In this document: one piece after another, positions 55,401-58,691 of the stretch | Position numbering within the stretch: the stretch's first letter is position 1 | How the letters are laid out: every line of letters starts with the position of its first letter | Assembly: GCF_015223195.1 (NCBI RefSeq) | Contig: NZ_JADFUA010000001.1 | Location: 575,858-639,857, forward strand | Length of the DNA stretch: 64,000 nucleotides | Direction: 5' to 3' | From: Chitinilyticum piscinae | GTDB lineage: Bacteria > Pseudomonadota > Gammaproteobacteria > Burkholderiales > Chitinibacteraceae | Made by a program: the position numbers and the translations under genes | The notes under the pieces: generated by a model | Seen by the model: the letters and a program-made list of their open reading frames with translations, nothing else | Databases searched by the model: none | Told to the model about the DNA's origin: nothing

Positions 55401-56444
55401 TTATTGCACCAGCACCGGGCCGGCCAGCGGGTCGGCCTCGACCAGCCAGCGCTTGTCGCCGGCGGCCTTCACGGCCAGCTTCTTGCTGCCCTGCTGCAGC
55501 ACCGGTGCCGAAGCGGCGGTGATTGCCAGTGTTACCGGAATCGCGTAGCGCTTGCAGTCGGTGGCGGAGGTATCGAACTGGATGCCTTTGCTATCAAGCT
55601 TTACCGAGCAATACCTGCGGGTTTCGCGGTAGCGGATCACTTCGGTCGGTGTCGCGATCCACAGCTTGCCGGCATCCGCCTGCTGCTTCAGATAATCGGC
55701 GTAAGCGGTGTATTCGGCCAGCGGCACCGCCTCCCAGCTGCCATCGGCAACCCCGTGCATGGTGCGGAAGGTCCAGCTGCCGCTGTTGATGGCGGCTTCG
55801 GCATGCTGGATCAGGATGCTGCCGGCGGCGCCCGGTTTGTACAGTGACCACTTGCCATCGGTCCAGTACACATCCCATTTCACAAAATAGGGATCACCCT
55901 CATCCGTGTTCAGCCCGGCCATGCTGCCGTCGTACAGGTGCTTGGCTGCGCGTGCGCCGAGATAATCGGGCTGCTGTTTCACCATTGCCCGGGTTTCCGG
56001 GCTGGCGAGGTCAAACGGGTAGCCGATAAAGCTGAAGCGATAGCCGGTTTTTTCCAGCATCAGTGCATGCGCGTCGAGGATTTCGCGTTTGGCATCCCAG
56101 CCTTTTACCGCGGCCAAGGTGCCGGCTTCCAGTTCGCCGCTGTGACTGAGGGTATGGTTGAAGGGCTCGTAGCCTTTGGCGATCAGCTCTTTCAGGCGCG
56201 CCCAGTCGGCAGGCTTGCATTCCTTGCCAATCACGCCAACCGCCGCCTTCAGCCCGCGTGCTTCGAGGATGGGGAGCGCGTTTTTCTCGATCCCGCTTAC
56301 CCCGGGGCTGCAGTAGTCATCATGCGCAATGGTGTGCGCGCCCCTGGCATCACCACGCCACGGGGTGATGCTGACGCTGGTGAGGGGCGCCGCCTGGGCG
56401 GCACTGGCCAGCACTGGCAGCAGGCCTGCCAGCAAAGCAATGGT
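55401..56444 (-). CDS. polysaccharide deacetylase (CE4/NodB-like), secreted
   Basis: Start at MRTIALLAGLLPVLASAAQA (signal peptide) within ORF 55401..56801. NodB-type motifs HTIAHDDY...TLSHSGE, typical CE4 His/Asp metal ligands. Confidence 0.7.
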   Translation of the reverse strand, partial: TIALLAGLLPVLASAAQAAPLTSVSITPWRGDARGAHTIAHDDYCSPGVSGIEKNALPILEARGLKAAVGVIGKECKPADWARLKELIAKGYEPFNHTLSHSGELEAGTLAAVKGWDAKREILDAHALMLEKTGYRFSFIGYPFDLASPETRAMVKQQPDYLGARAAKHLYDGSMAGLNTDEGDPYFVKWDVYWTDGKWSLYKPGAAGSILIQHAEAAINSGSWTFRTMHGVADGSWEAVPLAEYTAYADYLKQQADAGKLWIATPTEVIRYRETRRYCSVKLDSKGIQFDTSATDCKRYAIPVTLAITAASAPVLQQGSKKLAVKAAGDKRWLVEADPLAGPVLVQ

Positions 56445-56549
56445 TCTCATGAGGTGATTTCCTGTGTGCAACACGCAGGCCGGGCAGCCTGTAGCTGCAG
56501 ACGGTATCCTTGTCATGGAAGAGACAACAAGTTTTCTGGAGTAGTGTGT

Positions 56550-56750
56550 ATGGAAGATCGCATCACCGAGCTGGAAATCCGCCTGGCGCTGCAGGATGAG
56601 CTGCTGGATACGCTGAATGCAACGGTCGCGCAGCAGCAGTTGCAGCTGACGCGCCTGCAGCATCTGCTGGCCGAGATGCAGGGACATATCCGCCTGCTCG
56701 AACTCGGCCCGCGCAACCTGCCGCAGCAGGAAATTCCGCCGCATTACTAG
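56550..56750 (+). CDS. slyX: SlyX protein
   Basis: 66 aa. MEDRITELEIRLALQDELLDTLNATVAQQQLQLTRLQHLLAEMQ is collinear with E. coli SlyX. Confidence 0.85.
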   Translation: MEDRITELEIRLALQDELLDTLNATVAQQQLQLTRLQHLLAEMQGHIRLLELGPRNLPQQEIPPHY

Positions 56751-57107
56751 GACCGCACACCAAATGCGCGACGGTATTTTTGCGGGCAAATAGCGGCACA
56801 ATTACCTGTATGCCAAATGGGTGCGGGCATACCATCGTTTCACCCATCACACCGTGCAGCCTTCTTTGGCGGGATACGCCTGCGGGTTTCGGTCGGAGTC
56901 CGCCGGCGCGAGTGTGGAAAAATGGGAGCAGAGTTGGCGGGTATAGTTTGTCTGACTGTCCAAGCCAAATTGATTCAGCTATGCTTACTTCGTTGCTTTA
57001 ATCGGGCGTGGTTGGTCAATTGGCTTGCCGTAGGAAACTGGCAAGCCAAGCTTTCAGTTAAACCCTGCCGATTTGTAAATTGAAAATCATTATCAAGGAG
57101 TTTAGTC

Positions 57108-57758
57108 ATGAAAAAACTGAGTATGCTGCTTGCCGCCATGTTCGCGATGGCTTCTGTTTCTGTTTTTGCGGCCAATGCATCGGCCGTCAAGGGCGAAGGT
57201 GGTAACGACAAGGCAACCGCACCGCTGAAGGGCGAAGCCCACAGTGATCAGGACAAGGCCAAGAAGCCGCTGAAGGGTGAAGGTCATAGCGATCAGGACA
57301 AAGCCAAGAAGCCGATGAAGGGCGAGGGCGGCAATGACAAGGCCACCGCTCCGATGAAGGGTGAAGGCGGCAACGACAAGGCCACCAAGCCGATGAAGGG
57401 TGAAGGCGGCAATGACAAGGCCACCGCTCCGATGAAGGGTGAAGGCGGCAATGACAAGGCCACAGCTCCGATGAAGGGTGAAGGTGGCAATGACAAGGCT
57501 GCCAAGCCAATGAAGGGTGAAGGTGGCAATGACAAGGCTGCCAAGCCGATGAAGGGCGAAGGTGGCAACGACAAGGCTGTCAAGCCGGTGAAGGGCGAAG
57601 GCGGCAATGACAAGGCCACCGCTCCGCTGAAGGGTGAAGGCGGCAACGACAAGGCCACCAAGCCGCTGAAGGGCGAAGCCCACAGCGACCAGGACAAGGC
57701 CAAGAAGCCGCTGAAAGGTGAAGGCGGCAACGACAAGGCTGTCGCACCGGTCAAGTAA
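57108..57758 (+). CDS. secreted low-complexity protein built from ~15 tandem 13-aa repeats (KGEGGNDKATAPM)
   Basis: Signal peptide MKKLSMLLAAMFAMASVSVFA. The rest is [L/M]KGE(G/A)(G/H)(N/S)D(K/Q)(A/D)(T/K)(A/K)(P/K) repeated, encoded by 39-bp DNA repeats. A strong intrinsic terminator follows immediately. Confidence 0.7.
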   Translation: MKKLSMLLAAMFAMASVSVFAANASAVKGEGGNDKATAPLKGEAHSDQDKAKKPLKGEGHSDQDKAKKPMKGEGGNDKATAPMKGEGGNDKATKPMKGEGGNDKATAPMKGEGGNDKATAPMKGEGGNDKAAKPMKGEGGNDKAAKPMKGEGGNDKAVKPVKGEGGNDKATAPLKGEGGNDKATKPLKGEAHSDQDKAKKPLKGEGGNDKAVAPVK

Positions 57759-57812
57759 ACCGGTGTGCCGCAGCGATGAATGATCACTGTGGCAGCCTGT
57801 GGCAATGCAAAA

Positions 57813-57840
57813 GCGGGGAGCGTGGCTTCCCGCTTTTTTT
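57813..57840 (+). terminator. Rho-independent terminator downstream of the repeat-protein gene
   Basis: GCGGGGAGC / GCUUCCCGC stem (8-9 bp) with a GUGG loop, followed by a T7 run (57834-57840). Confidence 0.8.
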
Positions 57841-57908
57841 CCGTTTCCAGCCATAATTTATAAATCTGGTAATGCCAGAGACACTTTCAGGTCAAGGAGA
57901 GTCGCGTC

Positions 57909-58691
57909 ATGAAGATCAAACACTGGCTGCTCGGCGCCATGCTGCTGCCTTCGCTGAGTTTTGCCGCCAATGTGATTACCAAGTACACGCCACCGCAAAG
58001 CGAAGAGCTCAAGCCCTATTACGAGCTGCTGAAATCGCGCAATGCCCTGGATCAGGTCAAGCCCACCGTGAAATTGCTGAAATGGCCGGGAGACTTCACC
58101 CTGGAGACCATGGAATGCGGTGAAGTGAATGCAATGTACTATCCCGGGCAGAGCCGGATTGTCATGTGCTACGAGATTTTCAAGGATCTGCATGACAAGT
58201 CCGAAGAGCAGCTGACGGACTATTCCGCCGAGTATCGCCGCGATGTGGCGGTTCACGCGGCGATCTTCCTGTTCCGTCACGAACTGACGCACGCCATCAT
58301 CGATGTGTTCAAGGTGCCGATTTTCACCGACGAGGAGAACGCTGCCGATGCGGTAGCGCTGTATTACTCGCTGAACAACAGCGAACCGGAAGAGCTGAAA
58401 AAGCTGCTGAAGGGGGCCAAGTTCTACTTCATGCGCAAGAACCCGAAATTCGGTGAAACCAATGACTACCAGTTCGGAACGTTCTCGGATGTGCATCCGC
58501 TGCATGAACAGCGCTATTTCAACATGCTGTGCTACACCTACGCGAAATACCCCAAGGAAGCCGATTTCCTGGTCAAGGATGGCTATCTGCCGCAAAGCCG
58601 CGCCGATTATTGCCCGCGCCAGTGGGAACAACTGGATAACGCGATGAAAAAGCTGATCTGGCCGCACACCTACAAGAAGGTCGGCAAGTAA
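57909..58691 (+). CDS. DUF4344-family putative metallopeptidase, secreted
   Basis: Signal peptide MKIKHWLLGAMLLPSLSFA. HELTHAIID (HExxH) zinc-binding motif. Local GC is visibly lower than in neighbouring genes. Confidence 0.65.
   Translation: MKIKHWLLGAMLLPSLSFAANVITKYTPPQSEELKPYYELLKSRNALDQVKPTVKLLKWPGDFTLETMECGEVNAMYYPGQSRIVMCYEIFKDLHDKSEEQLTDYSAEYRRDVAVHAAIFLFRHELTHAIIDVFKVPIFTDEENAADAVALYYSLNNSEPEELKKLLKGAKFYFMRKNPKFGETNDYQFGTFSDVHPLHEQRYFNMLCYTYAKYPKEADFLVKDGYLPQSRADYCPRQWEQLDNAMKKLIWPHTYKKVGK

Follow-up and report, generated by a model that had tools for sequence, protein, structure and literature searches.

Chitinilyticum piscinae and its relatives encode a previously unnamed family of exported tandem-repeat proteins, which on sequence evidence is found so far solely in the Chitinibacteraceae (order Neisseriales). 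In every locus that we examined, across three genera, the repeat gene is followed directly, and on the same strand, by a gene for a DUF4344 zincin. We tentatively favor, with less than even confidence, the reading that the repeat protein is a multivalent substrate of this apparently co-transcribed, exported peptidase. Exported repeat proteins and protease genes located beside those of their substrates are known kinds; what is new is this repeat motif and the fact that it is obligately paired with an orphan DUF4344 zincin.

The window (the whole 64,000-nucleotide stretch of C. piscinae DNA that was analyzed) contains the repeat gene as an open reading frame of 216 aa plus a stop codon at 57108..57758 on the forward (+) strand. 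A ribosome-binding site, AAGGAG, can be read from the sequence 7 nt 5' of the ATG (57095..57100, +). The first 26 residues (MKKLSMLLAAMFAMASVSVFAANASA; 57108..57185, +) form a predicted Sec-type signal peptide, in which a basic n-region precedes a hydrophobic core and an AxA motif; cleavage would occur after ASA, or else after VFA. The orthologues from Deefgea and Chitinibacter show a similar layout (K/R n-region, hydrophobic core, AxA), and the repeat protein is probably exported via this signal. It contains no aromatic residues and no cysteine, and because it lacks cysteine it is not a lipoprotein.

The array itself occupies 57186..57749 (+) and is made of 14 in-frame units: 11 of 39 bp (13 aa) and three of 45 bp (15 aa; 57225..57269, 57270..57314 and 57666..57710, all +). 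The 13-aa units follow the consensus [M/L/V]KGEGGNDKA[T/A/V][A/K]P. The 15-aa units follow LKGE[A/G]HSDQDKAKKP and are numbers 2, 3 and 13 of the array, so they lie near both of its ends. The residues VK close the protein after the last unit. At 57252..57739, Tandem Repeats Finder detected 12.2 copies of a 39-bp period (82% matches), and the variant units gave an additional 45-bp period. A degenerate DNA pattern, back-translated from KGEGGNDKA, occurs 11 times in the 64-kb window, compared with 0.00 expected occurrences (100 shuffles). The long antisense open reading frames over the array are shadows of the repeat.

These results largely bear out the sequence-only reading, which had described a secreted protein composed almost entirely of 13-aa (39-bp) repeats with AHSDQDKAKKP-type variants at both ends. 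Its tandem repeats stand, and its count of about 15 units becomes 14 by our parse, three of them of 15 aa. Its description of near-perfect 39-bp direct repeats does not hold at the DNA level: the mean identity of the window units to one another is 83%, and the longest exact repeat is 47 bp.

The absence of obvious homology, also claimed by that reading, was confirmed in that the Pfam, NCBIfam, PDB and protein searches gave no match to a characterized family. In the Pfam scan (E up to 1), the sole listing was PCF11_RFEG_rpt (PF20844), with 30.2 bits against a cut-off of 43. We rejected membership in this family because the score is below the gathering threshold; the family is a eukaryotic repeat, and the match is an artefact of periodicity and composition. 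The NCBIfam search with the repeat protein gave no meaningful match, the PDB sequence searches matched neither the repeat protein nor the DUF4344 protein, and a word-indexed protein search with the repeat protein found nothing. An exhaustive phmmer search against 1.84 billion representatives returned 107 matches, none below 1e-30. Inspection of 12 of these 107 revealed unrelated proteins, some of them eukaryote-like, that have a periodicity of about 13 residues in common. Exact look-ups showed that the window protein and three of its orthologues are missing from a 15-billion-protein collection; the repeat gene is nonetheless called on three of our contigs (L007, L020 and L021). Because the members themselves are missing from the collection, the negative results at the protein level say nothing on how the family is distributed.

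The sequence-only reading had proposed searching databases for the KGEGGNDKA motif. Scans with the DNA pattern gave three single-copy chance matches and no further members in the JGI metagenomes, and none in viral contigs. A literature search found no paper containing KGEGGNDKA, and none mentioning C. piscinae. It was the DUF4344 neighborhood that yielded the members of the family: we located the orthologues of the repeat gene through the neighboring DUF4344 gene. Complete orthologues were obtained from Deefgea rivuli (172 aa, 11 units), D. chitinilytica (133 aa, 8 units) and Chitinibacter fontanus (157 aa, 10 units). Partial arrays were found on short contigs from short-read metagenomes or MAGs (L003, L008, L009-L011, L022 and L023), whose ends fall inside the array. 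Thus, the family was missed by protein searches because contigs break in the array and the complete proteins are missing from the collection.

The pairing was observed in the window, two D. rivuli loci (L001 and L021), one D. chitinilytica locus (L002), two Deefgea MAGs (L003 and L023), a Logan contig (L022), two C. fontanus loci (L007 and L008) and three Chitinilyticum-like loci (L009-L011). This sample corresponds to about six independent lineages in three genera (Chitinilyticum, Deefgea and Chitinibacter). The outer neighbors of the pair differ between genera, and DUF4344 is the sole conserved neighbor of the repeat gene. In the window, the pair is flanked upstream by a polysaccharide-deacetylase gene (55401..56801, - strand) and downstream by genes for a histidine phosphatase and PPK. 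In Deefgea the flanks are a threonine-aldolase-like gene and a thioredoxin-like gene, and in Chitinibacter they are YcaO and DUF2845/PLA1. That the two genes stay strictly paired while their flanks change points to a direct functional connection between them.

The YcaO protein of C. fontanus (L007, 840..2582) is 580 aa long, contains YcaO and YcaO_C domains and is encoded 870 bp upstream of the repeat gene. We rejected a role as a RiPP enzyme, as the gene is not conserved in the other loci, and it is probably unrelated.

More distant DUF4344 genes, with 28-36% identity and on contigs of the Acidobacteria type among others, had no repeat partner beside them in the four contexts that we inspected (L012, L015, L016 and L018). 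We conclude that the pairing is an innovation of this lineage and that DUF4344 has another, ancestral function. On two unrelated metagenomic contigs the distant genes form tandem paralogue pairs (L015 901..2722 and L018 3001..5390), one of which adjoins an ECF sigma factor gene and a gene for a Ser/Thr kinase-SLT fusion.

To what extent is the repeat peptide conserved? We compared the nine core codons across four species, using 40 canonical units: 0.6% of first, 2.2% of second and 28.9% of third codon positions vary. Because variation is concentrated on third positions, the peptide encoded in this frame is under purifying selection; the identical proteins encoded by two D. rivuli-type alleles of differing sequence point the same way. 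By this measure, 57108..57758 is a real gene with a real reading frame, and the nine-residue core KGEGGNDKA is under strong purifying selection. In the same 40 units, Gly3, Glu4, Gly5, Gly6, Lys9, Ala10 and Pro13 are invariant. Not every residue of the core is equally fixed; in D. rivuli, ND is replaced by TA in 4 of the 11 units.

The arrays evolve in concert. Unit identity is higher within species (82-88%) than between them (70-84%), and position 1 of the unit is species specific (D. rivuli has M, D. chitinilytica has L, C. fontanus has V, and the window array is mixed), so we conclude that the arrays are homogenized per species. In-frame unequal recombination or slippage would make copy number drift between species over the observed range (8 to 14 units).

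In a Chitinilyticum-like relative (L009 2..106, also L010 and L011), whose DUF4344 protein is 87% identical, the repeat protein ends in DKAEAPLW. All other complete orthologues have KAVAP[V/S/T]K at the C terminus, and L003 has KATAPTK there, so a C-terminal lysine is common and not universal.

The sequence-only reading had suggested that slipped-strand changes in repeat number could drive size or phase variation, and had proposed comparing copy number across strains and related genomes. The comparison gave 14 (window), 11, 10 and 8 units across species. Size change is therefore borne out between species. On/off phase variation is excluded: all units are 39 or 45 bp long, hence in frame, so slippage alters the length of the protein and not its on/off state. 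In the one comparison at nearly the intraspecific level, two D. rivuli-type alleles with six differences in 519 nt (98.8% identity) encode identical proteins, both with 11 units, while related species differ in copy number. That rapid slipped-strand phase or antigenic variation is the main point of the repeats thus seems very improbable to us. The long exact repeats (the window has up to 47 bp, other species have 86-104 bp) and the difference in copy number between species would agree with a contingency locus of this kind. Phase-variable contingency genes, however, have units whose length is not divisible by 3, whereas here every unit is a multiple of 3 bp and permits no switching, and alleles 1.2% apart have kept the same copy number. 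Moreover, the hosts are free-living freshwater chitin degraders, which live without immune selection.

We next consider what kind of protein the array encodes. In each of the four species the mature repeat protein is basic (pI 9.4-9.6, net charge +8 to +9) and very hydrophilic (GRAVY -1.2 to -1.4), with 19-22% Gly and about 20-21% Lys. The window protein contains 40 Lys against 31 Asp+Glu, for a pI of about 9.4-9.5 and a net charge of +9. AlphaFold2, run on the single sequence, gave no confident fold (pLDDT 52, pTM 0.42). It draws two three-residue strands (MKG and KAT) per canonical unit with low confidence (pLDDT 55-66 there), and a Foldseek search with this low-confidence model found nothing significant; the weak matches are all beta-solenoids, with E above 1. 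On these models the protein is probably largely unstructured. A functional amyloid of the CsgA/FapC kind was rejected in view of the Lys-rich, highly hydrophilic composition and the non-significant fold matches.

The short predicted strands and the nature of the weak Foldseek matches would fit a Ca2+-stabilized mini beta-solenoid. In such a structure each 13-residue unit would form one coil, GEGGND would be an RTX-like metal-binding turn (GGxG[N/D]D), the M/L/V and Ala residues would form a narrow core, and the product would be a rod-like surface or matrix fiber. GEGGNDKA does resemble the RTX nonapeptide consensus, if loosely (GGxG(N/D)DxUx). We consider this structure quite unlikely. The period is 13 or 15 residues and not 9, and there is no Pfam match to HemolysinCabind (PF00353). 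RTX proteins have an acidic domain and a C-terminal T1SS signal; here, the protein is basic, unlike Ca-binding repeat domains (pI 9.4, net +9 in the window), and has an N-terminal Sec signal. The putative turn also carries a 2-residue insertion in three window units, and its ND pair is dispensable in D. rivuli, where four of the 11 units have TA. Finally, the pTM of 0.42 comes from a single sequence, and AlphaFold2 often invents solenoids for repeats. The related proposal of the sequence-only reading, that the GGND/DKA periodicity chelates cations, is unlikely as well, because the mature protein is basic and D. rivuli tolerates TA; a Pfam match to RTX or other Ca-binding families is likewise absent.

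The composition brings to mind the hydrophilins and LEA-type proteins, which are repetitive, disordered and very hydrophilic. Hydrophilins are defined by a Gly content above 6% and a high hydrophilicity index, and the repeat proteins of all four species fall within that range. They differ from hydrophilins in being exported and basic, with a strictly conserved motif and a link to a peptidase. Thus, the repeat protein could stand alone as a polycationic, hydrophilin-like envelope or matrix protein, with DUF4344 merely co-regulated and not acting on it. A disordered Lys/Gly-rich polymer might bind anionic surfaces (LPS, eDNA, acidic polysaccharide or polyphosphate) or retain water in the periplasm or biofilm. 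Charge, hydrophilicity, the shares of about 21% for both Gly and Lys, and the lack of a confident fold all agree with this, as does the fact that distant DUF4344 genes work without such a partner. The strong ribosome-binding site and the codon bias suggest that the protein is abundant. Compared with a background of 16 long genes of the window, the repeat gene uses GGT (38% vs 13%), GAA (93% vs 56%) and CCG (93% vs 54%) more often, with the caveat that the repeat units are not independent samples; this bias is consistent with high expression. Even so, we find a stand-alone role somewhat doubtful. Bulk roles normally tolerate drift, yet the nine-residue core is invariant beside an enzyme that is only 57-61% identical between genera, and the pairing is strict despite changing flanks.

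The partner gene (57909..58691, +) encodes a 260-aa DUF4344 zincin metallopeptidase, which shows 100% identity to a C. piscinae protein listed by NCBI as DUF4344. Its Pfam match (PF14247) has 148 bits against a cut-off of 29.6 (E = 4e-43). The protein is predicted to be exported, as it has a putative signal peptide (MKIKHWLLGAMLLPSLSFA) and four invariant Cys. It has a zincin fold, with an HExxH motif (HELTH) and a downstream Glu (E143), and H124, E125, H128 and E143 are invariant in 39 sequences. Its fold matches are to generic zincins only, with none by sequence to a solved structure. To our knowledge, DUF4344 is an orphan zincin family without a known substrate.

In the DUF4344 lipoproteins of the Acidobacteria type, a segment with the sequence GQATAPDKGNF is conserved at the N-terminal boundary of the domain, immediately ahead of its first strand. 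This segment has ATAPxKG in common with the repeat junction KATAPMKGEGG. The likeness could be due to chance in low-complexity sequence, or the repeat could be derived from, or mimic, the N-terminal segment of the enzyme.

The two genes are separated by an intrinsic terminator (57809..57837, +), a hairpin with a 13-bp stem followed by a T-run, as the sequence-only reading had noted. A hairpin with a T-tract is found at the matching position in all five aligned loci, and its stem sequences differ yet stay complementary. In Deefgea and Chitinibacter, the T-tract ends 10-15 nt before the ribosome-binding site of DUF4344. Because this leaves no space for a separate promoter in these genera, we infer read-through transcription into DUF4344. 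The terminator is, by its sequence, probably leaky, and its conservation suggests an arrangement that yields abundant repeat protein and little peptidase.

Other elements were also noted around the gene. In the window, a second hairpin (GTGCCGCAGCG...CACTGTGGCAGC, 57759..57800) follows right after the stop codon, before the terminator, and the Deefgea loci have a hairpin at the matching post-stop position (ATGCTGC...GCAGCAT). Upstream, the 358-bp intergenic region contains a hairpin with an 11-bp stem and no proper T-run (TTGGCTTGCC...GGCAAGCCAA, 57020..57049), which matches nothing in Rfam and is not shared by the other genera. An Rfam search of 56600..58000 found no RNA element. Just 5' of the ribosome-binding site, between it and the likely promoter region, lies a Fur-box-like palindrome (TAAATTGAAAATCATTATC, 57076..57094, +), which matches the 19-bp Fur consensus (GATAATGATAATCATTATC) at 15/19. 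No other site in the 64-kb window reaches 14/19; at 15/19, the expectation is 0.04 sites per shuffle. The orthologous upstream regions match at 14/19 in D. rivuli and, in the same position, at 13/19 in C. fontanus, and that of D. chitinilytica contains no Fur-like site at 12 or above. The palindrome is a possible operator, with inconsistent support among orthologues.

A nine-residue motif that is strictly conserved in a protein without a confident predicted fold is what one would expect if an enzyme cleft, or some other specific partner, recognized it. Together with this, the features of the locus can be arranged into the reading that we tentatively favor, in which DUF4344 cleaves the repeat protein. 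The two genes would be one transcription unit with an attenuating terminator, making much repeat protein and little peptidase, and both products would meet in the periplasm or outside the cell. The peptidase cleft would meet one and the same extended recognition motif in every unit. The only hydrophobic residue of the unit (M, L or V, after Pro) would be a plausible P1' position; a hydrophobic preference at P1' is typical of many zincins. Cleavage may then remove an abundant polycationic coat of the envelope or matrix, or turn it over; more speculatively, it may free a 13-mer in many copies. A protease would be expected to cut any unprotected disordered polypeptide in its compartment. The survival of the pair through rearrangement of its surroundings also counts for a substrate.

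Several observations weigh against this assignment. Adjacency and co-transcription would equally fit co-regulation, inhibition or a chaperone role. The conserved 9-mer could reflect a fold (AlphaFold2 draws periodic short strands, with low confidence) or the binding of a third partner. Distant DUF4344 genes do without a repeat partner, and the sample covers only about six independent lineages in three genera. For instance, the repeat protein could be a trans-acting inhibitor, decoy or chaperone that fills the DUF4344 cleft unproductively and so restrains a potentially self-damaging periplasmic peptidase. The gene order and the attenuating terminator predict repeat protein in excess of the enzyme, as an inhibitor would require. 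In addition, a figure legend lists DUF4344 among the domains of effectors from type IV secretion systems that kill bacteria (PMC6536674); the domain may therefore be harmful in a periplasm. Known protease inhibitors and immunity proteins are, however, usually folded, and a multivalent disordered inhibitor is without close precedent. We therefore regard inhibition as improbable.

For a substrate of DUF4344, the closest parallel is provided by PPEP-1 and PPEP-2, secreted metallopeptidases that are each encoded beside their substrate, with multiple (PPEP-1) or two (PPEP-2) cleavage sites (PMC8610288). As in the PPEP-1/CD2831 and PPEP-2/VMSP pairs of Firmicutes, a secreted zincin gene here lies beside that of an exported protein with several copies of a short motif, in all loci and in three genera. 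In the PPEP pairs these motifs are the cleavage sites, multiple and consecutive in PPEP-1 substrates and two in VMSP (PMC8610288). The locus nonetheless falls outside the PPEP family, because DUF4344 is not a PPEP (M34-like) domain and a Pro-Pro scissile bond is missing from the units.

Neisseriales also contain other small exported proteins made almost wholly of short tandem peptide repeats. The AAEAP regions of Neisseria Lip (the H.8 antigen) and Laz are short tandem repeats, rich in Ala and Pro as is the repeat protein, without an established function. Lip is a lipoprotein with five-residue AAEAP units, whereas the repeat protein has neither Cys nor lipobox, consists of Lys/Gly-rich units of 13 residues and is paired with a peptidase. 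The two are not similar in sequence.

Cleavage by DUF4344 could also serve to release peptides. Yeast alpha-factor, Kex2-processed repeat proteins and multi-core RiPP precursors are tandem-repeat secreted peptide precursors, in which a signal is followed by many peptide copies and a protease is implied. The repeat protein likewise has tandem identical core peptides behind a signal. Unlike those systems, it contains no dibasic sites (neither KR nor RR), and the conserved locus encodes no modification enzymes. We give little credence to the specific version in which DUF4344 cuts a dedicated substrate once per unit and frees about 8-14 copies of [M/L/V]KGEGGNDKAxxP that act outside the cell, for example as a signal. 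We know of no bacterial Sec-dependent tandem-repeat peptide precursor. If true, this would be such a precursor system in a Gram-negative bacterium, analogous to the fungal alpha-factor and other Kex2-processed precursors.

The family also illustrates that low-complexity repeat families of this kind are invisible to protein-level homology search, being absent from the large protein collections that we searched and broken inside the array in short-read assemblies. For the orphan DUF4344 peptidases, an exported protein that is paired with the enzyme and carries 8-14 conserved motifs is a ready candidate substrate or ligand. Its assignment as a substrate, if true, would give the DUF4344 family a function.
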